From a bacterium (GTDB lineage Bacteria; Patescibacteriota; Minisyncoccia; Moranbacterales; GWC2-37-73): a DNA stretch of 64,000 nt. The stretch lies in the NCBI GenBank assembly GCA_037140955.1, contig JBAXDL010000004.1, positions 15,268 through 79,267 of the forward strand, written 5' to 3'. The position numbers and the translations under genes are program-made. The notes beneath the pieces were generated by a model. The model was not told the origin of the DNA. It searched no databases and saw nothing but the letters and a program-made list of their open reading frames with translations. Shown in pieces: positions 22,171 through 37,794 of this stretch (its first letter is position 1; every line of letters begins with the position of its first letter).

Positions 22171-22197
22171 TTATATTTTCGAAAAATGGCTTTTGTG

Positions 22198-22226: not shown

Positions 22227-22291
22227 CACATATTGTCATTTTGATGGCAAATTAAGTTGTTGCTTTAATAAAAAAATACAGGAGGTGCGAA

Positions 22292-23317
22292 ATGAAGGGA
22301 TTTTATCTTGAAGTGGTGTGGAGTCATTCGTTGCGGTTATTGTTTGTTTTTGTATTGTTTTTGAATTATTTTTGCTTTGCAAGGGAAAGTTGTGGTGCAT
22401 CATTTGATGAATCATTGACCGCTGTTTCTTCTGGTTTGCCAATGGGCGCTGATGTTGCTGCCATGGGTGGCATCTGCACCTTGGAGGATTTTTCCTCTGC
22501 AAATCCAGCAGTCACAAGCATTTCAAGTGGAGCAACAAGGAGTGGAACAATTAATTATGGAAATTTTCAGTTCAAAAAGAACATGCTGGAAGTTGTTTCT
22601 GGTTCGGTTGCCTCAAGTGTTGGCGATGTTGTTTTGCAGTTGAGTTTTGCTCATGGCGAAACACCGCTTCGATTTCTCTCCAGTGAAGAACTTTTTAGAA
22701 TAAAAAGAAGTGACACACTTGATTTTCAGTTTGGTGGGAATGTTTTTCATGGCCTTTTGCTTGATGGCGATGAGGTGTATCTTGGCATGGGTTATTCTTT
22801 CAACAAAAGCGTGCAAGATGGAATCACTTTTGCAGCAACATCAAGGAATGAATTTGTGGTTGATTCATCTTCGCATGGTGTGACAATTGGTTTTGCATAT
22901 AAGCCAATCAAGCAGGTCACGATTGGAGGTTTTGGTTCAAGGATTTGGACAAATTCAACAAGCATTGATGATGGATGGCAGAATTCTGAAATAAGTTCAT
23001 TTCACAGTATTGGACATCTTGGAATTTCTGCAAAAATCATAGAGGGCACAACTTTGGCTTTTGATTATCAAAGTTTGAGCTTCTCCGACTCTGACACTAA
23101 GTTTGATCAATACTTTTTGGGAATTGAGCAATATCTCATCAGGGATCACGTTGCTGTCTACGGGGGACTTGCTAACGGAGGTCTCACAACTGGTATTGGC
23201 TTGTATTTCAAAAATGGTGGTTTGAATTTGTCATATGGCAATAATATTGCAAAAGAAACGAAAGAATTTTTTGGATCTTGTGATGCATATATGGCTTCTG
23301 TTTATTTGAATTTTTGA
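22292..23317 (+). CDS. Secreted beta-rich protein of unknown function ending in a C-terminal aromatic residue
   Basis: Signal-peptide-like N-terminus, alternating hydrophobic beta-strand pattern, terminal ...YLNF; a monocistronic unit between a strong promoter and a strong terminator. Confidence 0.4.
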   Translation: MKGFYLEVVWSHSLRLLFVFVLFLNYFCFARESCGASFDESLTAVSSGLPMGADVAAMGGICTLEDFSSANPAVTSISSGATRSGTINYGNFQFKKNMLEVVSGSVASSVGDVVLQLSFAHGETPLRFLSSEELFRIKRSDTLDFQFGGNVFHGLLLDGDEVYLGMGYSFNKSVQDGITFAATSRNEFVVDSSSHGVTIGFAYKPIKQVTIGGFGSRIWTNSTSIDDGWQNSEISSFHSIGHLGISAKIIEGTTLAFDYQSLSFSDSDTKFDQYFLGIEQYLIRDHVAVYGGLANGGLTTGIGLYFKNGGLNLSYGNNIAKETKEFFGSCDAYMASVYLNF

Positions 23318-23334
23318 ACTGACTGAAATGTCAA

Positions 23335-23373
23335 TGAACCCTTGCAGAAACATTTGCAAGGGTTCATTTTTTT
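23335..23373 (+). terminator. Strong intrinsic terminator
   Basis: 12-bp perfect stem tgaacccttgca / tgcaagggttca, 8-nt loop, then T7. Confidence 0.7.
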
Positions 23374-23414
23374 GCATAAAATGCTTAATTTTAGCCAAAA
23401 ATGGTCAGTTATGT

Positions 23415-23443
23415 TTGACAAAATGCAATTTTAGGAGTATAAT
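23415..23443 (+). promoter_or_regulatory. Consensus promoter TTGACA-17-TATAAT
   Basis: Exact consensus hexamers at 17-bp spacing, followed by a GAGGGGG RBS. Confidence 0.55.
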
Positions 23444-23476
23444 TTAAAGTCAGTTGATTTTACAAAAAAAGAGGGG

Positions 23477-24013
23477 GTGTCTGCCATGATGAAAAGGTTG
23501 GTAAAGATTTTCTTCGGGGTGGACAGCTTTGAAGAAATGAAAAAAAGAGGACTCTCGATGATGCTCATTGTCCCAGCTATTCGTTGGGGTGAATGGATGC
23601 TTTTGGGAGCAACTGGAGCAGCTGTCGTTGCTCTCAAGGCTTGGGGAGTTGGAGATGTTTCAATCTTCTTTCTTCTCTGGGCTGGAAATCTTCTCATTGA
23701 ATGGTGCTTGATTGCCTTCAATGATTCCACTGATGTTGATGTCACTCTGATGGAGGGACTGAGACGACTGGTGGACAAGGCGTTTGAGCAATCTCTGATC
23801 TTGGGAATTGTGATTGAAATCTTGGTTGTCGTTCGCCTCATTATTTGGGACGGCGCAGCATATTTCATTATTTTTTTCCAAAAAAGACTCGTTCGGAAGT
23901 CTTTGAAGATCAGCCTGTTTGTTTTTTCATGCGGGCTGCAGATGGCAGTTTGGACAGTTTTGTATATCTATGGATATGAAAGCTTTTCAGATTTGTTTGC
24001 GAAACTGTTTTGA
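23477..24013 (+). CDS. Hypothetical integral membrane protein
   Basis: 178 aa, four or five TM segments, no recognised motif. Confidence 0.4.
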   Translation: MSAMMKRLVKIFFGVDSFEEMKKRGLSMMLIVPAIRWGEWMLLGATGAAVVALKAWGVGDVSIFFLLWAGNLLIEWCLIAFNDSTDVDVTLMEGLRRLVDKAFEQSLILGIVIEILVVVRLIIWDGAAYFIIFFQKRLVRKSLKISLFVFSCGLQMAVWTVLYIYGYESFSDLFAKLF

Positions 24014-24072
24014 TTTAAAGCTTGCCAACCATTGTGTTTGCAAGCTTCTTTTTTTGCAGCTACAATAAAGAC

Positions 24073-24657
24073 ATGGAACAGATGCAATCACAACCAAACA
24101 TTGAAAAAAAGGAGGATGCTATGCATTCACTAGAAGTTATTACAAGCGCGAGCGATGATTTTTTGAAATCTTTGCTTGAAATGCAGGACAAGGCCTATCC
24201 AGCTGGCTGGGAATATGAGGACGCCGAGGAATATTATCGCAAGATGATCGAGAGTTCCGAGAATATCAACATCATTCTCAAGGAGAAGGAAAAGATTATT
24301 GGCTATGTTTTGCTTGTCCCGCACAACAAAGTTCGAGAAGAATTGTTGGCAGATGATCCAAGGATGGAGGAAGACTCAAATCGTTTTTATATTGAAACGA
24401 TGGAGATTGATCCTGAGATTGGAAAAACTCTCGCTGGTGGAAAATTGTTTTTTAAGATGCTAGGGAAAGTGTTTGAAGAAGCTGAGAAAAAAGGAATCAA
24501 CAAATTTTCTATGCATGCTCGAGTTTCCACCGGGCTCAGCAAGGCTGTGCAGCGATATTTTGGCACAATGATGACTGAAGTTCGCAGAATTGAAAACTGG
24601 CCATATTACAATGGTCAGGAGCCAACTGATTATATGCTTGGCACATATGAGAAATAA
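24073..24657 (+). CDS. Putative GNAT-fold acetyltransferase
   Basis: Weak GNAT-like motif A region (IGKTLAGGKLF); the ORF extends upstream to 24022. Confidence 0.3.
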   Translation: MEQMQSQPNIEKKEDAMHSLEVITSASDDFLKSLLEMQDKAYPAGWEYEDAEEYYRKMIESSENINIILKEKEKIIGYVLLVPHNKVREELLADDPRMEEDSNRFYIETMEIDPEIGKTLAGGKLFFKMLGKVFEEAEKKGINKFSMHARVSTGLSKAVQRYFGTMMTEVRRIENWPYYNGQEPTDYMLGTYEK

Positions 24658-24663
24658 ACAAAA

Positions 24664-24692
24664 CCGGTTTAGCAAATGCTAAGCCGGTTTTT
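24664..24692 (+). terminator. Intrinsic terminator
   Basis: ccggtttagc-aaat-gctaagccgg hairpin followed by ttttt. Confidence 0.55.
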
Positions 24693-24749
24693 CTTTGCTT
24701 AAATGTTGTTTTGGGGTATATTTTATATATAAAGTTTTTAATTAAGGAT

Positions 24750-25088
24750 ATGAAATTGAAACAGGACAAATATCGCAAGGCAAGAGGTGGTCACTCACGA
24801 CTGCTCGAGGTGGCTTGTTTAAAATGCTCAGAGCATCTTTTTTATTATCAAAAAGATGGGCCAGGAATTATGAAGAGAACTTATTTGGACAGAATTACGA
24901 ATTCGGAGAAATTTGAAAATTTTCAACATCTTTCTCTTGATAAAATTCCTCAATTAATCTGTCCAAAATGTGGTGAACATATTGGAACGCCAATTGTTTA
25001 TAAAAAAGAAAATCGGCTAGCCTTTAGACTGTTTGAGGGCGCAGTGAGTAAGAAAATAGTTAATTTGGATAGTCAAAAAAAATTATGA
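24750..25088 (+). CDS. Zinc-ribbon-like small protein (CxxC...CxxC)
   Basis: CLKC...CPKC cysteine pairs; AAGGAT RBS before the ATG at 24750. Confidence 0.3.
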   Translation: MKLKQDKYRKARGGHSRLLEVACLKCSEHLFYYQKDGPGIMKRTYLDRITNSEKFENFQHLSLDKIPQLICPKCGEHIGTPIVYKKENRLAFRLFEGAVSKKIVNLDSQKKL

Positions 25089-25675
25089 AATTACTGTTAA
25101 CATCAACGGGGTTGAGCAATGAAAATGTTAGAAAATTTTTTATTTCTCAATTTGACAAGTTGGACAATAAAACTGCCTGTATTGTGACATCAGGACAAAA
25201 CGAAGAAGAACAGTTTTATATAGACGGCTCAATTAGAGAGTTGAAATCTTTGGATGTAGAAGTTGTTGAATTTAATATTGCCAAAGGAGATAAATTTGCT
25301 GATTTTCCATTTTTTGATATTTATTATATCTGTGGTGGAAATACTTTTTATATTTTGGATAGAATGCGAAAGACAGGAGTGGACAAGATCTTGATTGATG
25401 CTGTTAAAAATGGAAAATTCTATCTCGGCGTTAGTGCTGGAAGTATTATTGCTGGCCCTGACATTGAAGTTGCAGGATTGGGCGACCCAAATGATGTAAA
25501 CATTGAAGACCTAATGGGATTAAAACTTGTTCAATATATTGTTACCCCGCATTACAATCAAAAAGAAAAAAGCATGGTTGAGAAATTCAAGGAAAAACGA
25601 AAAAGCGAGCAGGTGATTGCATTAAATGATGATCAGGCCATTTTTGTTGAAGATGGTAAAATGATTTTAATATAA
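25085..25675 (+). CDS. Peptidase S51 (dipeptidase E-like) / class I glutamine amidotransferase-like
   Basis: LLLTSTG start, ICGGNTFYIL, GVSAGSII nucleophile region. Confidence 0.7.
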   Translation: MKLLLTSTGLSNENVRKFFISQFDKLDNKTACIVTSGQNEEEQFYIDGSIRELKSLDVEVVEFNIAKGDKFADFPFFDIYYICGGNTFYILDRMRKTGVDKILIDAVKNGKFYLGVSAGSIIAGPDIEVAGLGDPNDVNIEDLMGLKLVQYIVTPHYNQKEKSMVEKFKEKRKSEQVIALNDDQAIFVEDGKMILI

Positions 25676-25676
25676 A

Positions 25677-26207
25677 ATGAAAATTCAAGGTCAACAAATT
25701 TGTTTGAAAAAAAACTTGTCAGATGAAAATTACCCTTTGCTTTTGGGATGGTTTGTTGATTTGGAAGTTATTGGATATTTATATTCAGCTAAAAGAATAT
25801 CCAAATTTAAAACCATTAAAGAGATTAAGGATTTTCTGGCTGAAGAAAAAGATGAAATATTTTGGGAAATATATGCAAGTGATGACAAATTTATCGGTTA
25901 TGCTTCTTTGTGTGATTTCAAAGAAAAAGAACAATGCGAATTTAGTATTTTCATTTTGGATAAAAATTACTGGGGCAAAGGCTTGGGATTGGAGACAATA
26001 AGAATATTATTGGAGCATGCTTTTAATGATTTAAAAATGAAAGCAGTTGTTTTAGAGACCAGTGAGTTTCATCAAGGTGCAATTAAATTATACGAAAAAG
26101 CTGGATTCAAAAAGATAAAAGCTGTACCTAATGACAGAACAGTTTTCCATAAGGGAGAATGGGTATTGAGTGGAAGTGTTTTAATGGAAATTAAATCTAC
26201 AATATAA
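25677..26207 (+). CDS. GNAT family N-acetyltransferase (RimJ/RimL-like)
   Basis: GNAT motif A WGKGLGLE, motif B LYEKAGF. Confidence 0.75.
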   Translation: MKIQGQQICLKKNLSDENYPLLLGWFVDLEVIGYLYSAKRISKFKTIKEIKDFLAEEKDEIFWEIYASDDKFIGYASLCDFKEKEQCEFSIFILDKNYWGKGLGLETIRILLEHAFNDLKMKAVVLETSEFHQGAIKLYEKAGFKKIKAVPNDRTVFHKGEWVLSGSVLMEIKSTI

Positions 26208-26219
26208 TTTAAAAAATAT

Positions 26220-26555
26220 ATGCAAAAATCACTAGGACAGTTACAAGAAGCACAGAAAAAGTTATTGGAAGGTATCGAACATCCACGTCTTGGAAATATC
26301 GTTGGACTTTTCGAGGAAGTTGGTGAGCTTTCAAAAGAAATCATGGAGATTGAGTTTTACGATGCCTCAAAAAAGAAGGAACTGGAAGATGAATGCGCGG
26401 ATGTTTTCTCCAGCTTGCTTTCAGTATGTGATTCATATGACATTGATCTTGAATCTGCATATGAACGAAAAATAAATAAGATAGAGGGCAAGATTCCTGA
26501 ATGGAGAGAAAAATACGGAGAAAATCTTAAAAAACTCAGAAACAAATTAGATTAA
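26220..26555 (+). CDS. MazG-like nucleotide pyrophosphohydrolase (small all-alpha)
   Basis: EExGELxxE...ExxDxxxxL pattern (EEVGELSKE, ELEDECADV). Confidence 0.65.
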   Translation: MQKSLGQLQEAQKKLLEGIEHPRLGNIVGLFEEVGELSKEIMEIEFYDASKKKELEDECADVFSSLLSVCDSYDIDLESAYERKINKIEGKIPEWREKYGENLKKLRNKLD

Positions 26556-26648
26556 GAATTCAAAAACTCATGAAATCACAAATTATAATCCATATAGTTT
26601 CTATTTTTAGGCGCAACATGTATTATATCAGTAAGTAAAAACAGCTTG

Positions 26649-26686
26649 TTGACTTACTATATACAATCATATATAATTGTATATAG
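26649..26686 (+). promoter_or_regulatory. Promoter TTGACT-17-TATAAT with an overlapping 11-bp perfect inverted repeat (putative operator)
   Basis: ctatatacaat-catatata-attgtatatag spans the spacer and the -10 immediately upstream of the Fic gene. Confidence 0.5.
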
Positions 26687-26706
26687 TTAATATATAAGAT
26701 AACTTT

Positions 26707-27768
26707 ATGGAGAAAAATAGCCAATTTAAGGCAAGATTTCTTAATGTTTCGTCTGAAATACTGATCAAATTAACAAAAATAGAAGAAATGAAGGGAAGGT
26801 GGGTTGGTGGAATAAATATAAGCCCGCAGATTTTGGGTCGCCTTAAGAAGTCAGTCTTAGTGACTTCTGCGGGTGCTTCAACTCGTATTGAGGGATCTAT
26901 GATGTCAGATGTAGAGGTAGAAGAGTTTATACAAGGACTGAAAGTTGGAAAGTGGAAAAGCAGAGATGAGCAGGAAGTGAAGGGTTATTATGAACTGCTT
27001 AGTAATGTTTTTGATTCATGGCGAGCCCTGTCTTTCAATGAAAGCGCCATCAAACATTTCCACATGGAGATGCTAAGATATGTGCCAAAAGACGAAAGGC
27101 ACCGAGGGGATTACAAGAAAGGTGAAAACACTGTGAACATGCTCGATGCCAAAGGAAATAAAATTGGTGTGGTTTTTGAAACTGTACCGGCATATCTGAC
27201 GCCAAAAAAAATGCAGGAACTTATGGAATGGACACTAAAAGCCTTTGAAGAAAAAAAGATTCACCCGCTTTTTATTATTGGAAACTTTGTGGTTGAATTT
27301 TTGAATATTCATCCATTTCAAGATGGAAACGGAAGGCTATCGAGAATTTTGACTAATCTACTTTTGCTCAAGAATGGATATTTGTATATGCCTTATGTTT
27401 CACATGAGAAATTTATTGAAGACAATAAAAATGAATATTATATGTCTCTACGCAGAAGTCAGAAAACTTTTGGTTCTGAAAACGAGAATATTTCAGCTTG
27501 GATTGATTTTTTCTTGAATATTATTCTCAAGCAGTCAGAAATGGCCATGGAGCTGATGGAAAGTGAACATATTGAAAAACTGTTGTCTCAAAAACAACTT
27601 GTTGTATGGGAATATATGCAAACAGTAATTGAAACTGCCACAGGAGAAATTGTTGAAAAAACTGGTATTGTCAGACCAACTGTGAATCAAGCACTTGAAA
27701 GACTACTGAAATTAAAGAAGATTGAAAAAATAGGATTGGGCAGAGGAACAAGATATAGGAAATTATAG
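26707..27768 (+). CDS. Fic family protein
   Basis: Canonical Fic motif HPFQDGNGRLSR; C-terminal winged-helix-like region. Confidence 0.85.
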   Translation: MEKNSQFKARFLNVSSEILIKLTKIEEMKGRWVGGINISPQILGRLKKSVLVTSAGASTRIEGSMMSDVEVEEFIQGLKVGKWKSRDEQEVKGYYELLSNVFDSWRALSFNESAIKHFHMEMLRYVPKDERHRGDYKKGENTVNMLDAKGNKIGVVFETVPAYLTPKKMQELMEWTLKAFEEKKIHPLFIIGNFVVEFLNIHPFQDGNGRLSRILTNLLLLKNGYLYMPYVSHEKFIEDNKNEYYMSLRRSQKTFGSENENISAWIDFFLNIILKQSEMAMELMESEHIEKLLSQKQLVVWEYMQTVIETATGEIVEKTGIVRPTVNQALERLLKLKKIEKIGLGRGTRYRKL

Positions 27769-27807
27769 TTTATGTAAAATTTTTTAGTGAGTTATTGAAA
27801 TAATCAT

Positions 27808-28329
27808 ATGGAAATAATTAAAACAAAAAGATTTATTTTGAGAAAAATGAATCTGGGAGATGCAAGGGATCTTGCAAGAAACATGAACAATTGGAATGTG
27901 GTTAAAAATCTTTCTCAATTGCCATTTCCATATGAATTGAAGCATGCCAAACAATTTTCTGGAAAGATGGAAAAAGAAATGAAAAAGGAGAAGCCTGGAG
28001 ACTATGTGATGGTGATTGAAATTGATGGGGAAGTTGTTGGTGCAGTTGGCGCTCATCATGTTGAGCTTGGCCACAAAGCCGAGTTGGGTTATTGGTTGGC
28101 GGAGAAGCACTGGGGAAAAGGAATCATGCCTGAAGCTGCAAAGAAATTTTTGACACATATTTTTTCAAAATTCAAACTTCACAGAGTGTGTGCATATGCT
28201 TATGTGCAGAATAAGAACTCAATGAAAGTTTTGGAAAAAATTGGCATGCAATTCGAGGGAATTTGTCGAAAATATGCCATCAAGGATGGAAAATTTATTG
28301 ATGTGCATCTTTATGCGAAGGTTGCCTGA
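27808..28329 (+). CDS. GNAT family N-acetyltransferase (RimJ/RimL-like)
   Basis: WGKGIMPEAA motif A; about 170 aa. Confidence 0.75.
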   Translation: MEIIKTKRFILRKMNLGDARDLARNMNNWNVVKNLSQLPFPYELKHAKQFSGKMEKEMKKEKPGDYVMVIEIDGEVVGAVGAHHVELGHKAELGYWLAEKHWGKGIMPEAAKKFLTHIFSKFKLHRVCAYAYVQNKNSMKVLEKIGMQFEGICRKYAIKDGKFIDVHLYAKVA

Positions 28330-28411
28330 GGACTGTCTTTGCAAAAAATCTTATATTAAGTCACAATATAATTATTACAGATTGTATTTAAATAAATTTA
28401 AGTAATTTCCT

Positions 28412-29029
28412 ATGAATAATAATTCTATAAAACCTTCACCACTAGTTCAAAATTTTTCAAATAATACTCCTACGGGCAAGGCACTTGAAATAGGCTTTGG
28501 TTATGGTGATAATGCTATATTTTTGGCTCAACAAGGTTTTTCTGTTGTTGCTGTTGATATAAATAAAGAAATGGTTGAAAATCTTAAAGAGCGATCAATG
28601 CAATATGCAGTTGATTTAGAAATTATAAAAAATGATATTAGAAATTTTTTAATTAAGGATAATGAATATACTTTTATTTCTGCCTTAAATTGTTTAAACT
28701 TTCTATCAAAAGAAGAATTTTTTAATATAATGGAGAAGATAAAAAATGGATTAAAAAATGATGGTGTTTGTGTGATTGCATTGTTTACGGTTGATGATGA
28801 AATGTGTGAAGAAGTAAGCAGAAAAACAAATGGAAAATTTGATGATGATAATGGGAAGAAATGGTTTTTTCTTAAATCTGGGGAATTGAAAGAACTTTTT
28901 GAAAATGATTTTTTAATACTTTTCTATAAGGAAGTTATTATTGATGATAATGGTCATGTCGGTAAGGAGCTTCCACATAGACATGCTGTTGCACGAATCG
29001 TTGCAAAAAAAAGAAGCGCTATTGTTTAA
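28412..29029 (+). CDS. Class I SAM-dependent methyltransferase (TehB-like)
   Basis: Motif I LEIGFGYGDN, motif II VVAVDIN. Confidence 0.65.
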   Translation: MNNNSIKPSPLVQNFSNNTPTGKALEIGFGYGDNAIFLAQQGFSVVAVDINKEMVENLKERSMQYAVDLEIIKNDIRNFLIKDNEYTFISALNCLNFLSKEEFFNIMEKIKNGLKNDGVCVIALFTVDDEMCEEVSRKTNGKFDDDNGKKWFFLKSGELKELFENDFLILFYKEVIIDDNGHVGKELPHRHAVARIVAKKRSAIV

Positions 29030-29043
29030 GCGCCTCTCTATTG

Positions 29044-30138
29044 TTAAAAGTGATCAATTGTTTTTTCTTTAATATGTTCAAATAATTCCTTTTTCATGAA
29101 GCAGTCAGGATCAATACTATCAAATGAACCATTTATAATGAGTCGTTCATATGCACATCCGTTTCCACATGTATTGAGCCATTCGCATGTCGTACATTTT
29201 TTGTTTACACTGCATAAATTTTTATACATATCCTTGGCGTTGTTGTAAATTTCCAACAATGACATTTCAAGGATATTCCCTATGCAATAATCTTTGCGTT
29301 CAACATATCTATGACAAGGATATACGTCGCCATTTGAGGTGATAGACATAAATCCATAGCATCCATTTATGTTGGATGTGCAATCCATGGGTCTACCGCC
29401 AGAAAGTACCCTTAAGACGTTTCTGAAATTTCTGATTGGAAATCCTGGTTCATCATCTGCCATCCAAAGATCGAAAACTTTTTTAAGGAAATCAGTAGTT
29501 TCTTTTTCGGTTGGAATAGTATCAATGGATGAATTTTCATCTTGACCACAAAAATGAAAGTTGCAACTCGTAATTCCACAAGCTTTTAACTCCGCATAAA
29601 CCTGTTCTGCTTTGTGGACGTTGCTTTTTGTGATTAAGGAAACCGCTCCAATTGGCTCTCCTTTGTTGCGCCACATCGAAATTGATTTTAGTACGTTTTT
29701 ATGCGTGCCAGAACCATCACTGAAAATTCGATTAGCATCATGCGAATCTTTATCACCATCAATACTTGTACTAATGATAAATTTATTTTTCATTAGAAAA
29801 TCGCATGTTTTTTTGTTGAATAGCGTCATATTAGATTGAATGACATTCCTAACTTTTCCAGAAAAAATTGATCCATTTAAAAATGCTTTACTCTGAAACT
29901 TGATTGCTTTTTTGAAATGATCAATCCCTGCCAGTAGTGGCTCTCCTCCATGCCAAAGGAAATCTATATCACACGTTTCAAATTCCCTCGCATTAAACAT
30001 GATTTTCTCAAGAATTTCATCAGACATCCTCTCATATTTTTTGATGTTTTTTGATACACATCCATGATAGCAATATTTGCAAGCAATATTGCAACTTAGT
30101 CCAACGGGAAGAATTAAGAAAGTCATCTTTTCTCTCAT
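29044..30138 (-). CDS. Radical SAM/SPASM-domain peptide maturase (anSME/SCIFF-maturase-like)
   Basis: CNIACKYC (CxxxCxxC) radical SAM cluster motif near the N-terminus; C-terminal Cys-rich SPASM-like region (CTSNINGC...CH, CTTCEWLNTCGNGC). Confidence 0.85.
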   Translation of the reverse strand: MREKMTFLILPVGLSCNIACKYCYHGCVSKNIKKYERMSDEILEKIMFNAREFETCDIDFLWHGGEPLLAGIDHFKKAIKFQSKAFLNGSIFSGKVRNVIQSNMTLFNKKTCDFLMKNKFIISTSIDGDKDSHDANRIFSDGSGTHKNVLKSISMWRNKGEPIGAVSLITKSNVHKAEQVYAELKACGITSCNFHFCGQDENSSIDTIPTEKETTDFLKKVFDLWMADDEPGFPIRNFRNVLRVLSGGRPMDCTSNINGCYGFMSITSNGDVYPCHRYVERKDYCIGNILEMSLLEIYNNAKDMYKNLCSVNKKCTTCEWLNTCGNGCAYERLIINGSFDSIDPDCFMKKELFEHIKEKTIDHF

Positions 30139-30150
30139 TTGCTTACCTCC

Positions 30151-30182
30151 TTTTTTAAAAAAAGGTCATCCGATGGATGACC
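30151..30182 (-). terminator. Intrinsic-terminator-like hairpin between the precursor-peptide gene and the radical SAM gene (putative attenuator)
   Basis: On the minus strand: ggtcatcc-atc-ggatgacc 8-bp stem followed by UUUUUUU, then an AGGAGG RBS and the radical SAM ATG. Confidence 0.55.
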
Positions 30183-30212
30183 TTTGTGGTGATTGACGAC
30201 TGGAATTGTTGA

Positions 30213-30371
30213 CTATGATTCTGAGCAGTACGTGCTACATCCACTTGAGTCGCTACAACCAAGATCGCCACAGATTGCTACATTTTTATCATTAGGCTGT
30301 TTTTTATTGTTACTAAGGGCAACTTCCTTCTTGATACTCTTGATGATTTTAGAATCTTGATGATTGGACAT
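30213..30371 (-). CDS. 52-aa Cys-rich RiPP-type precursor peptide candidate (ranthipeptide/SCIFF-like)
   Basis: ORF is below the six-frame track cutoff. Translation is MSNHQDSKIIKSIKKEVALSNNKKQPNDKNVAICGDLGCSDSSGCSTYCSES. GGAGGTG RBS 6 nt upstream. Lys-rich leader, Cys/Asp/Ser-rich core. Lies immediately 5' and co-directional to the radical SAM/SPASM gene. Confidence 0.6.
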   Translation of the reverse strand: MSNHQDSKIIKSIKKEVALSNNKKQPNDKNVAICGDLGCSDSSGCSTYCSES

Positions 30372-30431
30372 GTTTTTCACCTCCTTTCTATTGTGAAATA
30401 ACTACTTGAAATATTTTTTATATTTCCTTTA

Positions 30432-30460
30432 ATAATAGTATGGATATGTATTTTTGTCAA
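30432..30460 (-). promoter_or_regulatory. Consensus promoter TTGACA-17-TATTAT driving the precursor peptide gene
   Basis: Minus strand: -35 at 30460..30455, -10 at 30437..30432, exact 17-bp spacing. Confidence 0.5.
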
Positions 30461-30561
30461 ATATGTCATTATTTGAGTTAATACATTTTTAGTGATTCTT
30501 CCAAAAAAAATTGTTTTTAATGTATAATTCAATTATAATATATATAGATAGATGTAGAGCA

Positions 30562-30590
30562 TTGACTTTTTTGCCAAACAGTGCTATTAT
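30562..30590 (+). promoter_or_regulatory. Divergent promoter TTGACT-17-(TGc)TATTAT for the 30628 gene
   Basis: Hexamers at 17-bp spacing with extended -10 TG. Confidence 0.45.
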
Positions 30591-30627
30591 TGGCTGTTTC
30601 GAGTATAATGAATATCTTTGATAAAAT

Positions 30628-31422
30628 ATGAATTCAGAAATTGAAAAGAAAGAAGTTATTGAGGGTGATTTTGACGTGGAAAGCATGTATACCACACTTT
30701 CTGAGGCAAAAGCTGAGGTTTGGAGAAGGTGGAATGACAAGGAGCTTCGAAAAAAGGTTGAAGAATATTTGGGTGAGATTCCTGATGTTTTTAAGGCTGA
30801 GCCGAGGGCTGTTCTTGCAAGACATGTAACAACTCCAAATTTAGAATTGGGATTATTTCTTGAGATGTCTAAAATGGCAGAATTAAAGCCTGTTAATCTT
30901 GAATACATTAAGGATAAATTTAGAATTAGTAATTTTGATAAGAGATATATCGCAAAAATGCCATTTGTTAAACGAAACGAATATGGTGGTGAGAAAGACG
31001 TGCGTTTTATGGATAGTATCTCCTTTGATGAGTTTGAAGGAGTATGTTTTGATAAAATTAGTACAATATGGGGGGAAAAATTTGTTTGTTTTCATCATAG
31101 ATTGCTCAACTGTGACGAGAAAGATATTGATATTTGTGATATTTCCGATTGGTATGAGTTAAAAGGTGGTTTTGCGCATAGTTATATGAAATATTTTATG
31201 AGCTTGTTTTTATGCAACGGAATTCTTTTTGAAAATTATTTAATAGGGACAACTGATGAAGAAAAATATTTTACGCAAAATGTGGTTTATAAGAATTTTA
31301 AAAAAATAGAAAATAAATTTGGAATTAAGCCTTTAATAGTACGTTTAATACCATCAAATGAAGAGCTAGATTTATATTGGTGGAGTTATTCTAATGACTT
31401 AGAAAAAAATATTTATGTGTAA
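30628..31422 (+). CDS. Hypothetical cytoplasmic protein
   Basis: 264 aa, no recognised motif; its stop overlaps the start of the downstream kinase gene. Confidence 0.4.
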   Translation: MNSEIEKKEVIEGDFDVESMYTTLSEAKAEVWRRWNDKELRKKVEEYLGEIPDVFKAEPRAVLARHVTTPNLELGLFLEMSKMAELKPVNLEYIKDKFRISNFDKRYIAKMPFVKRNEYGGEKDVRFMDSISFDEFEGVCFDKISTIWGEKFVCFHHRLLNCDEKDIDICDISDWYELKGGFAHSYMKYFMSLFLCNGILFENYLIGTTDEEKYFTQNVVYKNFKKIENKFGIKPLIVRLIPSNEELDLYWWSYSNDLEKNIYV

Positions 31423-33112
31423 TTTTGAAATACCGTCCACATTGTTTTATTTTTATATTCCAGTTTTGATTGGTGCTTTTTTGCTTGCTTTTCTAATTTT
31501 TTTTTCAAATAAAAAATCACAATCAAATAGGGATTTATTTGTCTTTATTCTAACTCTCTGTTTTTGGATTTTTATAAGTTTATTTGAATATTTTCCTTTT
31601 GATAGTAGTGTTAATTTATTTGTTGCTAGATTATTAGTGTTAACATCGTTGGAATTATTGTTTTTCTTATTCTTTTCTTATTCTTTTGTTGGCAAACCAC
31701 TTGATATTAAAAAGAGAATTTTATTTTTTTTGCCATTTATTCCAATAATTTTTTTGCTGCCTACTGATCTAAATATAAAGATGGTTGATTATGCAAGTTG
31801 CCAAAATGAAAATGGATATCTTTATTGGTATGTTTATTTTATACTATTTATTTATCTTGGAATGGCTCTTAAGAATTTTTTTAAAAGTTATAATGCAGAA
31901 AAAAGCGATAGTATTCTAAAGAAACAAATACGAATAGTGTCATATTCTATTGGTTTTTTGGTTACATGGTTTGTAGTTCTTGTTGAGCTTGTTGATTATT
32001 ATTCTAGAGTTGGAAATTTTGTCTTGAGTAATGATGTTATACCTATGTTTATACCAGTTGGTATACTTATTTTCATTGGGTTTCTTTTTTATGCAATTAC
32101 AAAGTATCAGTTTCTTGAAATTAAAATGATTGCTGCTCAGATTTTAACCTATGCTGTTTGGATACTTATTGGTTCTCAGTACTTCTTTGCTGATTCGGTT
32201 TCTCAATATTTACTTATTGCATTGACATTGTTGCTTTCAATCATCTTTGGAATTTTCTTGATAAAATCGGTGAAGAATGAAATAGACAGAAAGGAAGAGT
32301 TGCAGATCATGGCGGATCGTTTGGCATCGGCCAATGATCAATTGCGCAAATTGGACAATGCCAAAACAGAGTTTATTTCCATTGCTTCTCATCAATTGCG
32401 CACACCGATCACTGCAATCAAGGGTTTTGCTTCTCTTTTGCTGGAAGGGTCATATGGTGAGATCAGTGAGAGTGTGCATGGGGCTTTGGACAAGATTTAT
32501 CTTTCATCGGAACGTTTGGTGAATTTGATTGAGGATTTGTTGAATGTCTCTCGCATTGAATCTGGTCGCATGGCTTTTGTTTTTGAAAAAGCTTCTGTGA
32601 CAAAATTGTTGCAAGAGTTGTATGACAATTTCATTTTGATTGCCAAAACAAAGAAGTTTTATTTGGATTTGAAAATGCCGGAGCAGCCTTTGCCTGAGAT
32701 TGTGATGGATTATTCCAAGATTCGCGAGTTGGTTTCGAATTTCATTGATAATGCGCTGAAATATACTGAAAAAGGTGGGGTGACAATTCGAGCTGAAATC
32801 AAAGATGAAGGTGTTGTGATTGATGAAAATGGCTTTGTGGTTGAAGGTCAAAAATCAGAGTTTGGCAAAATGATTCGCATCACTGTTTCTGACACTGGAA
32901 TTGGAATTCCACGCGAAGAAATTCCATATCTTTTCAAAAAGTTTTCACGTGGCAAAGACGTTTCACGCCTCCACGTTGGTGGCACAGGTCTTGGGCTCTA
33001 TGTGGGCAAGGCTATTGCCGAAAACCATCATGGCCAAGTTTGGATTGAATCTGAAGGTGCCGGCAAGGGTTCCAAATTCATCATTGAGGTGCCGATTGAG
33101 AGGGTTGGGTAG
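31415..33112 (+). CDS. Sensor histidine kinase with polytopic (about 7-8 TM) N-terminal sensor
   Basis: H-box SHQLRTPITAIKGF, HATPase_c G1/G2 boxes (DTGIGIP, GGTGLGL); no adjacent response regulator. Confidence 0.8.
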   Translation: MCNFEIPSTLFYFYIPVLIGAFLLAFLIFFSNKKSQSNRDLFVFILTLCFWIFISLFEYFPFDSSVNLFVARLLVLTSLELLFFLFFSYSFVGKPLDIKKRILFFLPFIPIIFLLPTDLNIKMVDYASCQNENGYLYWYVYFILFIYLGMALKNFFKSYNAEKSDSILKKQIRIVSYSIGFLVTWFVVLVELVDYYSRVGNFVLSNDVIPMFIPVGILIFIGFLFYAITKYQFLEIKMIAAQILTYAVWILIGSQYFFADSVSQYLLIALTLLLSIIFGIFLIKSVKNEIDRKEELQIMADRLASANDQLRKLDNAKTEFISIASHQLRTPITAIKGFASLLLEGSYGEISESVHGALDKIYLSSERLVNLIEDLLNVSRIESGRMAFVFEKASVTKLLQELYDNFILIAKTKKFYLDLKMPEQPLPEIVMDYSKIRELVSNFIDNALKYTEKGGVTIRAEIKDEGVVIDENGFVVEGQKSEFGKMIRITVSDTGIGIPREEIPYLFKKFSRGKDVSRLHVGGTGLGLYVGKAIAENHHGQVWIESEGAGKGSKFIIEVPIERVG

Positions 33113-33119
33113 GGATGTT
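32936..33119 (+). repeat. Direct repeat copy 1 (184 bp): the 3' end of the histidine kinase gene plus 7 nt
   Basis: 182 of 184 nt identical to 35926..36109. Confidence 0.85.
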
Positions 33120-33209
33120 TTATGTTGACATAGTATAATTTTTTATGTTATATATTATTAAGGGTATTGAAGTAATTGTTCCTTAAATTAAGCAAAAAAG
33201 GAGTGTGCC

Positions 33210-34000
33210 ATGACTGACCTATCTTTGTATTTATTTGCACAGAAAGAAAGAATAAAAACATTATATGCATATAGAAATAGGAGTTGGAGAAAGCTTCCTA
33301 TACTGGAAAATGGTGAAAAGCTTGTAATTATTCCATTTGAAATGTGTCATCCTTTTTATTATTTGGATATGAAAATTTCAAATAGTAAAGATATTTTTAT
33401 AAGAGAGGATGTTTTTTCTCGATTTCTTGTTGCAAAAAAGATCGCGTCATCCTATGGTTTTGATTTAATTGTATTTGATGGTTGGAGATCCATTGAATTG
33501 CAGGAGAGTTTATTTTGGTATTATCTTAAAAAGTTTATAGTAGAAAAATTTAACATGAAAGATGTTTTTTCATGCGCAGATGATGTTTCTGATATAAAAA
33601 GAATATTTCTTTCTTTGCCAGAAAATAATCAAGTTTTAATGATGGAGGCAAATCGTTCTTATGTTAGTTGGCCATCAAGTGATCCATTTTGTCCAAGTCC
33701 TCATGCGACAGGTGGCTCTATTGATGTTTGGCTTTATCGCGATAATGTCCCAGTTAATCTTGGTGTTCCATTTATTGGATGGAAAAAGATGCTGGAGCAT
33801 TTTATCATCTAAAGATAAAAAGGGAGCCATTTCTTGTAAATGATAAGAATATTTCAAGAAATAGAAATATTCTTATTTATTCAATTGTAAAAGCTGGATT
33901 TTCATGCTATGGTCCGGAGTTATGGCATTTTAATTTTGGTAATCAGATGGACACGCTTGTTAGTGGTAAAATCGCTAGATACTCATATATTGAACCTTGA
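33210..34000 (+). pseudogene. VanX/DdpX-like D-Ala-D-Ala dipeptidase (peptidase M15D) with a -1 frameshift in an A5 run
   Basis: DGWRS and SPHATGGSIDV (SxHxxGxAxD) zinc-site motifs in frame 1. The C-terminal ...ELWHF motif is in another frame (33779..34000). A single extra A in the aaaaa run at 33783..33787 would restore one ORF. Confidence 0.6.
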
Positions 34001-34063
34001 TATAACATTAGGGCCTGTAGTAAATGCAGGCTCTATTTATTTAATATATTAATTTATGAAAAA

Positions 34064-35134
34064 ATGAAAAAAACAACAGTTGTAATTTTTTTTGGTGGAA
34101 AGTCTACAGAACACGAGGTTTCTATTCGAAGTGCTAGAATGGTTTTTAACTCTCTTGATAGGAAAAAATATGATATATTAGCTGTAGCAATAAACAAGAA
34201 AGGTATTTTTTTGTCTCCAGGACAGTCAATTGATGTTATAAAGAATGATGTTTGGCCACTTGATAAAAATATCGAAAAAGTATCAATATCTCAAAGTGAG
34301 GCATGCATTGTTTTCGAAGATAGAAAAATATTTTTTGATGTTGCCTTTCCTGTTATGCATGGCCCATTTGGTGAGGATGGAACAATGCAGGGACTACTCA
34401 AGTTAACAGCGGTTCCTTTTGTTGGTCCTGGTGTGCTTGGGTCTGCCATTGGGATGGATAAAGATGTTTCAAAGCGTCTTTTGCGTGATGCTGGAATCCC
34501 AATTGGATTATTCTTATCATTTAATAAATGTGAAATTAATTCAATATCATTTGATCTTTGTAAAAAGAAACTTGGACTCCCTTTATTTATAAAGCCAGCA
34601 AATCTTGGATCATCAGTCGGAGTTTTTAAGGTTCATAATAATGTTGAATTTGATATAGCTATAAAGAAGGCTTTCTTGTTTGATTCTAAAATACTTATAG
34701 AGCAGTATATAAAAGGAAGAGAGATTGAATGTGCCGTTATTGGTAATGAAGAATTGCAAGTATCTATTCCTGGAGAAATAGTGCCAACGCATGAGTTTTA
34801 CTCTTATGATGCGAAATATGTTGATGAGAATGGTGCAATTTTAAATATTCCAGCAAATATTCCAGCTTCAGTTGTTAGGAAGATTCAAATTATATCAGAA
34901 AAAACATATAAGGTTCTTTGTTGCGATGGAATGGCTAGGGTTGATTTTTTTCTCACATCGAAAAATGAATTATATGTTAATGAAATAAATACTATTCCAG
35001 GATTTACTTCTGTTAGCATGTTTCCTAAATTGTGGGAGGCTAGTGGTATTTCAAATCAAAAATTAGTAGATATTTTAGTGCAACTTGCTATGGATAGATT
35101 TAAAAATGAAAATAAATTAAAACTAACAATGTGA
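34064..35134 (+). CDS. ddl: D-alanine--D-alanine ligase
   Basis: N-terminal VIFFGGKSTEHEVS, ATP-grasp motifs, C-terminal EINTIPGFT. Confidence 0.9.
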   Translation: MKKTTVVIFFGGKSTEHEVSIRSARMVFNSLDRKKYDILAVAINKKGIFLSPGQSIDVIKNDVWPLDKNIEKVSISQSEACIVFEDRKIFFDVAFPVMHGPFGEDGTMQGLLKLTAVPFVGPGVLGSAIGMDKDVSKRLLRDAGIPIGLFLSFNKCEINSISFDLCKKKLGLPLFIKPANLGSSVGVFKVHNNVEFDIAIKKAFLFDSKILIEQYIKGREIECAVIGNEELQVSIPGEIVPTHEFYSYDAKYVDENGAILNIPANIPASVVRKIQIISEKTYKVLCCDGMARVDFFLTSKNELYVNEINTIPGFTSVSMFPKLWEASGISNQKLVDILVQLAMDRFKNENKLKLTM

Positions 35135-35140
35135 TTTTTT

Positions 35141-35920
35141 ATGGAAAATTTTTTTAAAAACATGGCATATGTTGATAGTCATGGAGAATCTGTTGATTTT
35201 GAGAAAAAAAGATTTAAATTTTGGCTAGAAAATGTTCCAAAGAAAATAAGAAGAATGGAGTATGAATTATCAGTTCTTTATAGGAGATTACTTAATGCTA
35301 ATTTGTATAAATTTGATAATAAAGAGAAGCACGGTAGATTCTTAGTATTGCCAGCTTTTAATGAGGAGGCCGAAAAATTAATGTGGGATCAGTTTGTTGG
35401 GAGTTTTTTACGGGGAAAAGATCGTATTATTGCATTTGATTCTATTGCGAATAAAGTAAGAGAAAATATTTCCGTGATAATGTCAGAAGCTGACATGTCC
35501 ATTGTTGATGAAAAAATAAAAATAATTGCAATTGGTGGATCCTCTTTTTATGGTCCGCGTAAGTTAGGTGAGAGGTTATCAGATATTGATATTCATATAT
35601 TACTAGATGATGATACTGATTTTTCTAATTTTGAAATTTTCCCTAAAACTAAAGAATCAGAAATTATAAATCCATATCATATAATTGGCACTGGAAAAAC
35701 AGATCAATCTCGTGGAAAAAATAGGCAAATTCACTGGTTGTTATATCCACATTTTCCAGTTTTAAATAAAATGAATAGTGATGAATTGAGCAGTGTTATT
35801 GCTGATCTTTCAAATAGTACAATAAAGAGAGAAGGTGAAATTATTAATACAATAGATAAGATGAGGAAGAGACTAGATGAATTAAGGCTTTTAGATATAA
35901 GAGAGAATCATTCATATTGA
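35141..35920 (+). CDS. Hypothetical protein with minimal nucleotidyltransferase motif
   Basis: GGSSFYG...DIDIHIL (GS-x-n-DxD) Pol-beta-type NTase signature. Confidence 0.4.
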   Translation: MENFFKNMAYVDSHGESVDFEKKRFKFWLENVPKKIRRMEYELSVLYRRLLNANLYKFDNKEKHGRFLVLPAFNEEAEKLMWDQFVGSFLRGKDRIIAFDSIANKVRENISVIMSEADMSIVDEKIKIIAIGGSSFYGPRKLGERLSDIDIHILLDDDTDFSNFEIFPKTKESEIINPYHIIGTGKTDQSRGKNRQIHWLLYPHFPVLNKMNSDELSSVIADLSNSTIKREGEIINTIDKMRKRLDELRLLDIRENHSY

Positions 35921-35925
35921 TAATT

Positions 35926-36109
35926 AAAAAGTTTTCACGCGGCAAAGACGTCTCACGCCTCCACGTTGGTGGCACAGGTCTTGGGCTCTATGTGGGCAAG
36001 GCTATTGCCGAAAACCATCATGGCCAAGTTTGGATTGAATCTGAAGGTGCCGGCAAGGGTTCCAAATTCATCATTGAGGTGCCGATTGAGAGGGTTGGGT
36101 AGGGATGTT
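35926..36109 (+). repeat. Direct repeat copy 2 (184 bp): orphan duplicate of the histidine kinase 3' end
   Basis: Encodes ...KKFSRGKDVSRLHVGGTGLGLYVGKAIAENHHGQVWIESEGAGKGSKFIIEVPIERVG*, identical to the kinase C-terminus; 2 mismatches in 184 nt. Confidence 0.85.
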
Positions 36110-36206
36110 GACAAAAACATCCTACAATGGTATTTTCTTCTCACATAGCTCTTTAACAAAAAGGGCCAAATATTGAATGATACTAACTTTTAAAGGGGGT
36201 AATATT

Positions 36207-36482
36207 ATGTTTGGATTTAAAAAGTCAAAAACCTATTGTTTTCATATTTCAAATTTCGATGAGATTTATGAAAATGATATAGAATTTTCTCAAAAAATTG
36301 ATGATAGTGGTTTGCCTTTGAATGCTTTTCCTGCACATCTTAATACAGAAAAAGGAGTATTTTGTGTTTGCATTTATTACAAAAAAGATCCATTGCTTGA
36401 AAATCCTGATTTTTCAGTTGAAAAAATGACAAAAATTTTGCAAGAATTGGGTTGCAATGTAACGTCAGTAGATGAAGAATAA
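36207..36482 (+). CDS. Small protein, tandem paralog A
   Basis: MFGFKKSKTYCFHISNFDEI...; GGGGG RBS 7 nt upstream; about 55% identical to paralog B, with a near-identical 95-bp 5' region. Confidence 0.45.
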   Translation: MFGFKKSKTYCFHISNFDEIYENDIEFSQKIDDSGLPLNAFPAHLNTEKGVFCVCIYYKKDPLLENPDFSVEKMTKILQELGCNVTSVDEE

Positions 36483-36532
36483 TCTAAAAACAAGGGAATT
36501 GAATGATACTAACTTTTAAAGGGGGTAATATT

Positions 36533-36808
36533 ATGTTTGGATTCAAAAAGTCAAAAACCTACTGTTTTCATATTTCAAATTTCGATGAGATTGAAAAAAA
36601 TGATATTGAAATTTATGAAAAGCTGGAACATGGTGCTTTGGAGCATTATTGTTTTACTGCAAAATTGGATTCTTCAAAAAAAGTTTTTTGTGTCTATGTG
36701 AATTATGAAAAAGATTTATTTTTGGAAAATCCAAATTTTTCACTTGAAAAAATGACAAATTTCATTAAAAGTACGGGGCTTATCATTCTTTCAGTAGACG
36801 AAGAATAA
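36533..36808 (+). CDS. Small protein, tandem paralog B
   Basis: Same N-terminus and C-terminal ...SVDEE as paralog A, with a divergent middle. Confidence 0.45.
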   Translation: MFGFKKSKTYCFHISNFDEIEKNDIEIYEKLEHGALEHYCFTAKLDSSKKVFCVYVNYEKDLFLENPNFSLEKMTNFIKSTGLIILSVDEE

Positions 36809-36835
36809 TCTCAAAACAAAAAAAGGAGGTGTAAG

Positions 36836-37774
36836 ATGGAAAACGTTATCGGCAGAAGGGATTTTTTGAAATTTGGAACAGCGATGGCAGCAGGACTTTC
36901 AATGGGAATGATTCCAGCGGGTTGCGCTGAAAATGCAAGATCAGATGATGCGGAAAGTTTTTCTCCAATCAAATATTCTTTCTTGATTGATGAAAACAAT
37001 TTTTCAAAAATAAATTCAGAAACTCAAATTGTTGAAAGCCTCACGCCTATCGCTGCTTATGGTTTAGATATAAAAGAACTCCATAGGCCAATAATGTTTG
37101 ATTCGTCTCTTATTGAAAAAGCCTCACAAGAAAAAGAGGCTTTGCTGTGCACTGACTCAGAAAAAACACTCGCATCAATTGTTCCTGTGGATTCGACTTT
37201 GTCTTTGGCTTTGGGTGTACAGGCAAATGGATTTTCCGAAATGATTGATGTGGCTGCTGATTCAATTTCTTCCATCTTGCAATATGGAAAACTTGATCTT
37301 GGTATGGATTTTTTTCATCAAGATTTGTTTTTGGGAAAAGCACTTGCTAAGCAGGGATTCAATACATTGGAAAAAGTTGAATATCATACAGATCTTTTTG
37401 GTTGGTTTTTTCAGGTTAGAGGTCCAGATTTTGATCCACTTGGATCCTGTGATCGCAGAAAGATTTCACATGTGCATCTTGAAATTGGTAAGAAGGATTA
37501 CAGGGGAAAGGTTAATAAAATAGCCAATTTTCATCTCGGAGCATATAAGGATGGAAAAAAGCGTTGTTTTGTGCTTTGGAATAATATTAGGCCACATAAC
37601 ATTTGCTGGAAATCATGCAATGCAAACAAAAAAACACTAACTGAGATGATGAAGTGGGTTATTATTTCAGTTGCTGCTGCACTTGGTATCTATCTCTCTG
37701 CTTTTATTATTGCAGCAATAGCAGAAGCTTTGGGTGTTGCATTGATTCCTGTTTTGGCTGCTTTGGCAATTTGA
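36836..37774 (+). CDS. Tat-signal secreted protein with C-terminal hydrophobic anchor
   Basis: Twin-arginine motif RRDFLKFG followed by AGC; C-terminal 45-aa hydrophobic stretch; Cys-rich region before the anchor. Confidence 0.5.
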   Translation: MENVIGRRDFLKFGTAMAAGLSMGMIPAGCAENARSDDAESFSPIKYSFLIDENNFSKINSETQIVESLTPIAAYGLDIKELHRPIMFDSSLIEKASQEKEALLCTDSEKTLASIVPVDSTLSLALGVQANGFSEMIDVAADSISSILQYGKLDLGMDFFHQDLFLGKALAKQGFNTLEKVEYHTDLFGWFFQVRGPDFDPLGSCDRRKISHVHLEIGKKDYRGKVNKIANFHLGAYKDGKKRCFVLWNNIRPHNICWKSCNANKKTLTEMMKWVIISVAAALGIYLSAFIIAAIAEALGVALIPVLAALAI

Positions 37775-37794
37775 AAAACCTTTTAACCTAATAA

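Follow-up and report, generated by a model that had tools for sequence, protein, structure and literature searches.

A Conserved Radical SAM/SPASM Peptide-Modification Cassette, Predicted from Sequence Comparison and Found Mostly in Patescibacteria

Genes and Features of the Locus

We analyzed a 64-kb stretch of DNA (hereafter, the window) from a Patescibacteria-type genome, assembly GCA_037140955.1, contig JBAXDL010000004.1, positions 15,268 to 79,267, and focused on a small cassette of genes within it. Read along the minus strand from 30460 to 29010, the cassette comprises a promoter-like site, a ribosome-binding site (RBS), an open reading frame (ORF) for a 52-aa peptide (30213..30371), a hairpin, a second GGAGGT site, the gene for a 364-aa radical S-adenosylmethionine (SAM)/SPASM enzyme (29044..30138), and a hairpin shared with a convergent gene. 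This last gene, on the plus strand (28412..29029), encodes a TehB-like class I SAM-dependent methyltransferase of 205 aa, assigned by Pfam, NCBIfam, synteny, and predicted structure. The GC content of the cassette is without anomaly and thus gives no sign of recent transfer.

The locus was compared with a set of 160 related loci fetched around enzyme homologs (L and P numbers below are labels of loci and homologs). Gene conservation, synteny, family placement, motif pattern, and covariation of enzyme and core are observed directly in this comparison. Judged from the sequences, the locus is a real and conserved cassette for a peptide made on ribosomes and modified after translation (RiPP), with a putative precursor peptide, a putative radical SAM/SPASM maturase, and a methyltransferase, and the family of its enzyme appears undescribed, falling within none of the described families. 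The cassette occurs mostly in Patescibacteria. Sequence features by which a RiPP is generically recognized are present, namely a conserved leader with a variable core, a peptide gene adjoining that of a modifying enzyme, and a pairing of the two that is kept across genomes. An earlier note on this DNA had proposed a RiPP-type locus of precursor and radical SAM/SPASM maturase in a Patescibacteria-type genome, a proposal borne out by homologous pairs at ~23 other loci.

The Precursor Peptide

The peptide ORF begins with an ATG at 30371 and ends with a TAG at 30215..30213. The earlier note had pointed to this unlisted 159-nt minus-strand ORF (30371..30213), and our 52-aa translation is identical to the one it gave; the ORF is also absent from the called genes on the identical public contig, so that its description as unannotated stands. 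The ATG is the likely start because the alternative GTG, at 30380, falls inside the RBS. In the window peptide, a Lys-rich leader with the motif K-I-I-K-S-I-K-K-E-V is followed by a core that reads GDLG-CSD-SSG-CST-Y-CSE-S. No Pfam model and no NCBIfam family matches the peptide at E <= 1.

That the small ORF is a real gene is indicated by a profile for which 20 peptides were taken from other loci and the window sequence was left out, and which matched this ORF at E = 4.7e-13 among the 1375 ORFs of the window (the runner-up reached 0.23), and by the position of its homologs upstream of enzymes elsewhere. At ~23 other loci the gene of a homologous enzyme is immediately preceded, on its own strand, by that of a homologous peptide, and conservation at the protein level spans loci whose enzymes share 37-67% identity. 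Profile matches sit only beside close homologs of the enzyme, with none near the distant radical SAM homologs among the 160 loci, and a profile search of the window found no extra precursor copies. The family is rare, given that an exhaustive search of 1.84 billion representative proteins returned just ~22 short representative clusters, none of them functionally named; no protein identical to the window peptide was found among 5.8 billion proteins.

The family leader motif, (K/R)-I-(I/L)-x-x-I-(K/R)-x-E-V, is common across clades, and the cores are diversified. In close loci the C-terminal core takes the form C-S-[D/E]-x-x-C-S-x-Y-C-S-[D/E/T], and the conserved positions are C39, C45, and C49, together with Tyr48. 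The core had been described as a four-Cys core; all four Cys are present in the window, but only these three are kept across relatives, C34 being replaced by Ser or Ala in the nearest of them (for example, SGDLGCSDSSGCSTYCSES). The check that the earlier note had suggested, conservation of the small ORF and its Cys in homologous loci, therefore came out in favor of the gene, with the ORF kept at ~23 loci and three of the Cys kept with it. At L001 (1906..2128), the precursor is broken by an apparent frameshift after ...LVCGH on a contig of a metagenome-assembled genome (MAG) with a coverage of 1.6, which probably reflects faulty assembly and not a pseudogene.

Family Placement of the Enzyme

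The enzyme was assigned by Pfam, alignment, and predicted structure. As the earlier note had described it, it is a radical SAM protein of 364 aa with a CxxxCxxC motif (C16-x3-C20-x2-C23) and a SPASM-like Cys cluster, and it matches the Pfam families Radical_SAM (PF04055; score 45.2, cut-off 29.5) and SPASM (PF13186; score 38.2, cut-off 21.5). Full-length homologs, ~45 in number and 37-67% identical to it, come for the most part from MAGs of Patescibacteria, Parcubacteria, or Saccharibacteria. Across 39 homologs, the ligands of the radical SAM cluster (C16/C20/C23) and eight auxiliary-cluster Cys are invariant or nearly so, and these eight align with those of anSMEcpe, an anaerobic sulfatase-maturating enzyme (anSME). 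Directly after C275, a ligand of auxiliary cluster I (Aux-I), the window enzyme carries His276-Arg277. A RiPP recognition element (RRE) is absent: the radical SAM motif starts at residue 16, models that contain an RRE aligned only from about model positions 80-98, and the predicted structure (mean predicted local distance difference test [pLDDT] score 93.6) has no extra N-terminal domain.

All NCBIfam scores fall below the curated cut-offs. The top match is DynA (NF041298; 221.1 bits, cut-off 450), and the anSME model TIGR03942 gives 218.6 bits (cut-off 349.45). The PapB model NF047865 is fourth best (142.3 bits, cut-off 340), and lower scores were obtained with models for GrrM/OscB (139.4 bits, cut-off 310), AmcB (119.4 bits, cut-off 425), YhhB (113.8 bits, cut-off 445), FxsB (97.3 bits, cut-off 370), XyeB (76.6 bits, cut-off 450), and the SCIFF maturase (TIGR03974; 76.5 bits, cut-off 425). 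In a sequence search of the PDB, anSMEcpe was the best match at 230 bits and the triceptide synthase ChlB reached 126 bits, and the enzyme model gave template modeling (TM) scores of 0.85-0.87 with anSMEcpe, 0.85-0.86 with ChlB (9GM3, 9GMC), and 0.75-0.78 with CteB. By hidden Markov model (HMM) score, the nearest relatives are anSME and DynA; by predicted structure, they are anSME and ChlB. These scores, the lack of an RRE, and the TM values place the enzyme in the RRE-less, anSME-like lineage to which DarE/DynA and cyclophane synthases also belong.

Misannotation within this lineage comes easily, since enzymes of the sister clades reach up to 323 bits on TIGR03942, still under its cut-off of 349.45. 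Public records label some of the peptide-associated enzymes, P0019 and P0067 for instance, as "anaerobic sulfatase maturase."

Each of the described systems shares some features with the cassette and lacks others. With anSMEcpe (PDB 4K36-4K39; TIGR03942), the window enzyme has in common its size, its architecture, the absence of an RRE, and a full SPASM domain with the eight aligned Cys. It differs in that Asp277-Phe278 after the Aux-I Cys of anSMEcpe is replaced by His-Arg, a residue comparison that relies only on the stretch shown in the HMMER alignment, and in that the substrate of anSME is a sulfatase, whereas here it would be a dedicated small peptide without C/S-x-P/A-x-R. Among known enzymes, anSME has been noted as the one that DarE resembles most (PMC10288494), and DynA/DarE are likewise anSME-like by sequence; however, they form C-C, C-O, or C-N links from aromatic to aliphatic residues within short Trp-rich cores, whereas the core here is rich in Cys, Ser, and Asp. 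Triceptide synthases, which are SPASM enzymes without an RRE, work on recurring motifs of three residues, in which position 1 supplies the donor and hydrogen is abstracted at position 3 (PMC11499958). The window enzyme shares its RRE-less, anSME-like fold with one of them, ChlB, which was crystallized with the leader of its precursor (PDB 9GM3), and sister clades of the window enzyme hold Tyr/Trp/His-x-Asp repeats, but in the clade of the window itself the donor position is occupied by Cys rather than by an aromatic residue.

A Cys donor upstream of an Asp/Glu acceptor is found instead in PapB/freyrasin. PapB abstracts a hydrogen next to the Asp/Glu carboxylate and links that position to an upstream Cys as a thioether (PMC9413430, PMC12373016); it requires the carboxylate and is reported to bind the substrate Cys on an auxiliary cluster (PMC12373016), and it has been described as using an RRE-bound leader and as fully converting C-x1-D substrates in vitro (PMC9413430). 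The window core offers C39-S-D41 and C49-S-E51 in the same sense, but at spacing x1, whereas the native spacing of PapB is C-x3-D. No methyltransferase partner of PapB is mentioned in the papers that we consulted. Like the locus, SCIFF/CteB (TIGR03973, TIGR03974; PDB 5WGG) pairs a Cys-rich precursor with an adjacent radical SAM/SPASM enzyme, in its case a thioether synthase; CteB, however, has an open Aux-I iron and an N-terminal RRE that the window enzyme lacks, and the TM score is just 0.75-0.78.

Core Motifs and Their Covariation with the Enzyme

The variability of the cores follows a pattern. Where the enzyme is 33-36% identical, the paired precursor keeps this style of leader but has a core built of Tyr-Gly/Ser-Asp repeats (for example, YSDGYGDAGYGDYSDA), and other sister cores carry Trp-His-Asp or His-His-Asp triplets. 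Sister-clade cores hold 4-5 Tyr/Trp-x-Asp motifs, some of them with few or no Cys, and several Cys-type cores finish in triplets of this kind (for example, CSDHHDADH, CSDWHDA, and PPHQD). The window core has a single aromatic residue, within Y48-C49-S50. Over 40 precursors, the motif [C/Y/W/H/F]-x-[D/E], at spacing 1, was observed 114 times against 42.7 expected from composition-matched shuffles, a 2.7-fold enrichment that rises to 3.1-fold for Cys-x-[D/E]. In the same 40 precursors, spacings 0 and 2-5 are not enriched, and C-x3-D, the PapB spacing, stands at 0.65.

The type of core also covaries with the enzyme. In the 15 Cys-type loci, C275 is followed by His (13) or Asn (2); in the 11 aromatic-type loci it is followed by Gly (7), Ala, Val, or Ser. 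The two loci with Asn276 carry mixed cores with both Cys and aromatic residues. The clade keeps Arg277 without exception, whereas anSME has Phe there and Asp at the position matching His276. Because the change from His/Asn to Gly/Ala at position 276 goes with the change from Cys-rich to aromatic cores, it suggests that Cys takes part in the chemistry. Motif enrichment and covariation together are what would be expected if the enzyme attacked the Asp/Glu side chain and coupled it to the residue two positions upstream. Triceptide synthases work on this principle (PMC11499958) and so, with Cys as the donor, does PapB.

The Methyltransferase

The earlier note had regarded the cassette as "minimal," with a two-gene layout. 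This part of its description does not hold, since the methyltransferase adjoins the enzyme in 17 other distinct loci, nearly always convergently, and it is present in all Cys-type loci with a contig that extends far enough, L006 being the one exception. At L095 the precursor has been relocated directly upstream of the methyltransferase, on the same strand. Close homologs of the methyltransferase are few, and several of them lie on the same contigs as homologs of the enzyme.

The methyltransferase model (pLDDT 92) finds its best PDB matches in TehB, with TM scores of 0.72-0.76; TehB family models score below their cut-offs (62.2 vs 303, 50.3 vs 218, and 45 vs 219.5). A fold search returned TehB and many generic class I enzymes, with Ecm18 among the functional matches. 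Ecm18 methylates a disulfide sulfur. The TehB and Ecm18 matches of the predicted fold are a weak hint that the target of methylation may be sulfur or another chalcogen.

At L086, a second cassette (2077..4945) adjoins the pair of anSME-like enzyme and methyltransferase. It comprises an RRE-type radical SAM protein (433 aa), a downstream small ORF ending GPCSGDDCNSDSGGCTHDASCGQDC, a 231-aa protein of unassigned family, and a second, near-identical TehB-like methyltransferase. Since this cassette carries a near-identical copy, the methyltransferase may serve Cys/Asp-rich peptides of different maturases.

Expression Signals

The promoter-like site upstream of the peptide gene (TTGACA-17-TATTAT; 30432..30460, minus strand) is the best match of the region, at 11 of 12 positions, and lies where a consensus promoter had been reported. 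Since promoter-like sites are no more numerous in this AT-rich region than chance predicts (6 found, 8.8 +/- 3.1 expected), its function as a promoter is a plausible reading only. The reported RBS, GGAGGTG, occupies 30384..30378, with 6 nt between it and the ATG of 30371, and the second GGAGGT site precedes the enzyme gene, after the hairpin.

The hairpin between the peptide and enzyme genes (30157..30185, minus strand), which the earlier note had seen together with its U7 run, has an 11-bp stem, a 3-nt loop, and seven T, and begins 27 nt past the stop codon. Its folding energy is -15.4 kcal/mol (z = -4.98), which none of 200 shuffles equals; a simple terminator scan missed it because an AAA/UUU extension of the stem takes up part of the U-run. 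A stable hairpin lies between the two genes in 27 of 28 related loci, although its sequence is not conserved. An Rfam scan of the whole window gave zero matches, and hence no riboswitch or known RNA at the hairpin. It is probably a leaky terminator or an RNA-stabilizing element that would set the ratio of peptide to enzyme; its conservation would fit a leaky terminator that keeps peptide RNA in excess, a parallel that we draw with RiPP operons, where this is common. The hairpin between the convergent enzyme and methyltransferase genes (29010..29039), detected as a terminator-like site on both strands, is likely a bidirectional terminator.

Proposed Chemistry and Its Alternatives

The best explanation that we can offer, and one on which we are evenly divided, is that the three genes would make a peptide with three-residue Cys-to-Asp/Glu thioether rings that is then methylated. 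The peptide would be transcribed from its own promoter, with the hairpin letting part of the transcripts pass on into the enzyme gene. The enzyme, a member of an RRE-less lineage, would recognize the leader motif (K/R)-I-(I/L)-x-x-I-(K/R)-x-E-V, attack an Asp/Glu side chain, and join that carbon to the sulfur of the Cys two residues upstream, giving small thioether rings; candidate rings in the window peptide are C39-S-D41 and C49-S-E51, with C45-S-T47 less certain. In the sister clades, Tyr, Trp, or His at the donor position would give cyclophanes instead. The TehB-like methyltransferase would then methylate the peptide, and sulfur or carboxylate is our guess at the site. Which bond is formed, what is methylated, and what the hairpin does are matters of inference. 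Thioether formation, taken by itself, seems the most likely chemistry, with a confidence that is even at best and perhaps slightly short of that. A wider proposal, which we put forward tentatively and would sooner doubt than defend, is a RiPP class largely confined to Patescibacteria, in which one anSME-derived, RRE-less lineage with a shared leader motif would make three-residue rings onto Asp/Glu from a Cys donor (thioether) or a Tyr/Trp/His donor (cyclophane), the donor being set largely by residue 276 (His/Asn versus Gly/Ala/Val/Ser), and in which Cys-type products would be methylated by a dedicated TehB-like enzyme.

Several points weigh against thioether rings with subsequent methylation. 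Shared ancestry confounds both the motif enrichment and the covariation at position 276, as the signal comes from a few clades. In the middle triplet, position three holds Thr, Asn, or Val, none of them acidic. A PapB-like mechanism with the thiolate on the cluster would need a ligand to be displaced, because Aux-I appears fully ligated by four Cys, as in anSME. The class I fold of the methyltransferase says little about its substrate, and the gene is not cotranscribed with that of the enzyme because the two are convergent. Finally, Y48 and C49 are the most conserved residues of the core, which would also fit a three-residue cyclophane centered on Tyr. In such a product the ring of the near-invariant Tyr48 would be linked to the Ser50 beta carbon within Y-C-S and the Cys would remain unlinked, perhaps to bind metal, form disulfides, or be S-methylated by the TehB-like enzyme, and the clear Tyr/Trp-x-Asp repeats of the sister clades, a fold equally close to ChlB and anSME, the presence of the GrrM/OscB, YhhB, and AmcB models among the top matches, and the action of TehB and Ecm18, the nearest structural relatives of the methyltransferase, on chalcogens or sulfur can all be read in its favor. 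We nevertheless consider it unlikely: the third residue is Asp in all aromatic-type relatives but Ser in Y-C-S, the conserved acidic residues lie two positions past Cys and not past Tyr, and the residue at position 276 changes with the type of core, Cys-rich or aromatic.

The closeness to anSME invites two further explanations. In one, the enzyme would carry out an anSME-type oxidation that turns one or more Cys (or Ser) in the C-S motifs into formylglycine, leaving reactive aldehydes on the peptide. It draws on anSME being the closest solved structure (230 bits, TM 0.86) and tied for the best HMM match (218.6 bits), on the retention of all eight auxiliary-cluster Cys, and on the Cys-Ser dipeptide that occurs three times in the core. 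Yet the score falls short of the anSME cut-off of 349.45, the core is without a C/S-x-P/A-x-R motif, and the position of Asp277, the presumed catalytic base of anSME (a role that our literature search did not confirm), is His in the window enzyme. Moreover, oxidation would leave unexplained the Tyr/Trp-x-Asp cores of the sister clades, which have the same leader and few or no Cys, and we regard it as distinctly improbable. In the other, a true sulfatase maturase would lie beside a chance upstream ORF, as the public names of P0019 and P0067 would imply. The earlier note had listed, among what would refute its reading, a firm grouping of the enzyme with anSMEs and a sulfatase substrate nearby; the sulfatase signature PS00523 has no match in the six frames of the 64-kb window, and no sulfatase was found among the flanking genes or among the conserved neighbors in 34 loci. 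This absence, together with a core that has no C/S-x-P-x-R and the replacement of Asp277-Phe278 by His-Arg, is why the sulfatase reading fails, and since the ORF is conserved as a protein across enzymes 37-67% identical, with its leader motif and hairpin, we find it scarcely credible. Membership in the SCIFF/ranthipeptide group with a CteB- or PapB-type maturase, under which the earlier note had filed the locus, agrees with a Cys-rich core with Asp/Glu/Thr encoded 5' of a radical SAM/SPASM gene and with the PapB model as fourth-best match at 142 bits. It was rejected on the tests that define the family, and is very improbable: the HMM check that the earlier note had called for put the enzyme at 76.5 bits against 425 on TIGR03974, the PapB score of 142.3 bits is likewise below 340, an N-terminal RRE is absent, the peptide matches no curated precursor model in NCBIfam or Pfam, among them the six-Cys SCIFF model TIGR03973, and has three conserved Cys, and the enriched spacing is C-x1-D/E, not C-x3-D.

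Context and Significance

We found no papers on this family, on Cys-donor triceptides, or on characterized radical SAM RiPPs from Patescibacteria, in a search that was not exhaustive. Patescibacteria have minimal genomes and are usually reported with few or no biosynthetic clusters. A long-read study, for instance, recorded zero biosynthetic clusters in its Patescibacteria MAGs (PMC11613949). The family described here is invisible to standard mining because public pipelines miss the peptide gene and label some of the enzymes "anaerobic sulfatase maturase." A dedicated and conserved peptide-modification cassette in these organisms points to a secreted or signaling peptide that may be relevant to their host-dependent lifestyle.

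As an enzyme family, it occupies the ground between sulfatase maturases, cyclophane synthases, and thioether synthases. If the wider proposal is true, a lineage with Cys and aromatic donors would join ranthipeptide and triceptide chemistry in one clade, with a ready-made specificity switch. The choice between a C-S and a C-C bond is directly testable, since natural pairs of enzyme and substrate differ in the donor and in one active-site position.

Neighboring Genes and Minor Observations

Divergently from the cassette, the window encodes a multi-pass membrane histidine kinase (31415..33112, plus strand; HisKA and HATPase_c), for which no response regulator was seen. At L111 a 41%-identical, full-length ortholog of the kinase lies directly upstream of the precursor, and L095 has a partial ortholog. 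In the window, a weakly matching VanX-like M15 dipeptidase and a D-Ala-D-Ala ligase (Ddl) come next after the kinase (31415..35134 in all), and a cell-wall or Van-like arrangement may be its real context. On these comparisons an association of the kinase with the cassette is possible but unproven. A divergent 264-aa protein, without a Pfam or NCBIfam match and without a homolog in any of the 160 related loci, was dropped as a cassette member. The genes upstream of the methyltransferase (23477..28329) encode three GNAT acetyltransferases, a peptidase S51, MazG, and a Fic protein; these accessory genes, and the VanX-like gene, were likewise set aside, as they are not conserved beside the cassette elsewhere.

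In aromatic-type clades, a transglutaminase-like Cys protease, likely the leader peptidase, is encoded on the strand of the enzyme, downstream of it, in nine loci (for example, L009 3760..4278, L100 5070..5672, and L002 5874..6392, the last in the complete Parcubacteria genome AP024682.1); no homolog of it was found in the window. A search of the window for an exporter gave just generic ABC ATPase similarity, far from the cassette. ABC exporter-type genes adjoin the cassette in four other loci (L011 4650..6404, L085 1292..2230, L095 3..1132, and L100 1..1428) and may be optional export partners, with no equivalent beside the window cassette. Five loci (L007 1895..2857, L087 2557..3561, L097, L100, and L109) share a protein of ~320 aa, without a Pfam or NCBIfam match, that is encoded downstream of the enzyme but on the other strand.

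Nearly all ORFs of at least 150 aa in the window (1..64000) lie on the plus strand, and GC skew is positive. The pair of peptide and enzyme is one of very few minus-strand units, and the kilobase that holds it is the sole one with negative GC skew within 20-40 kb.

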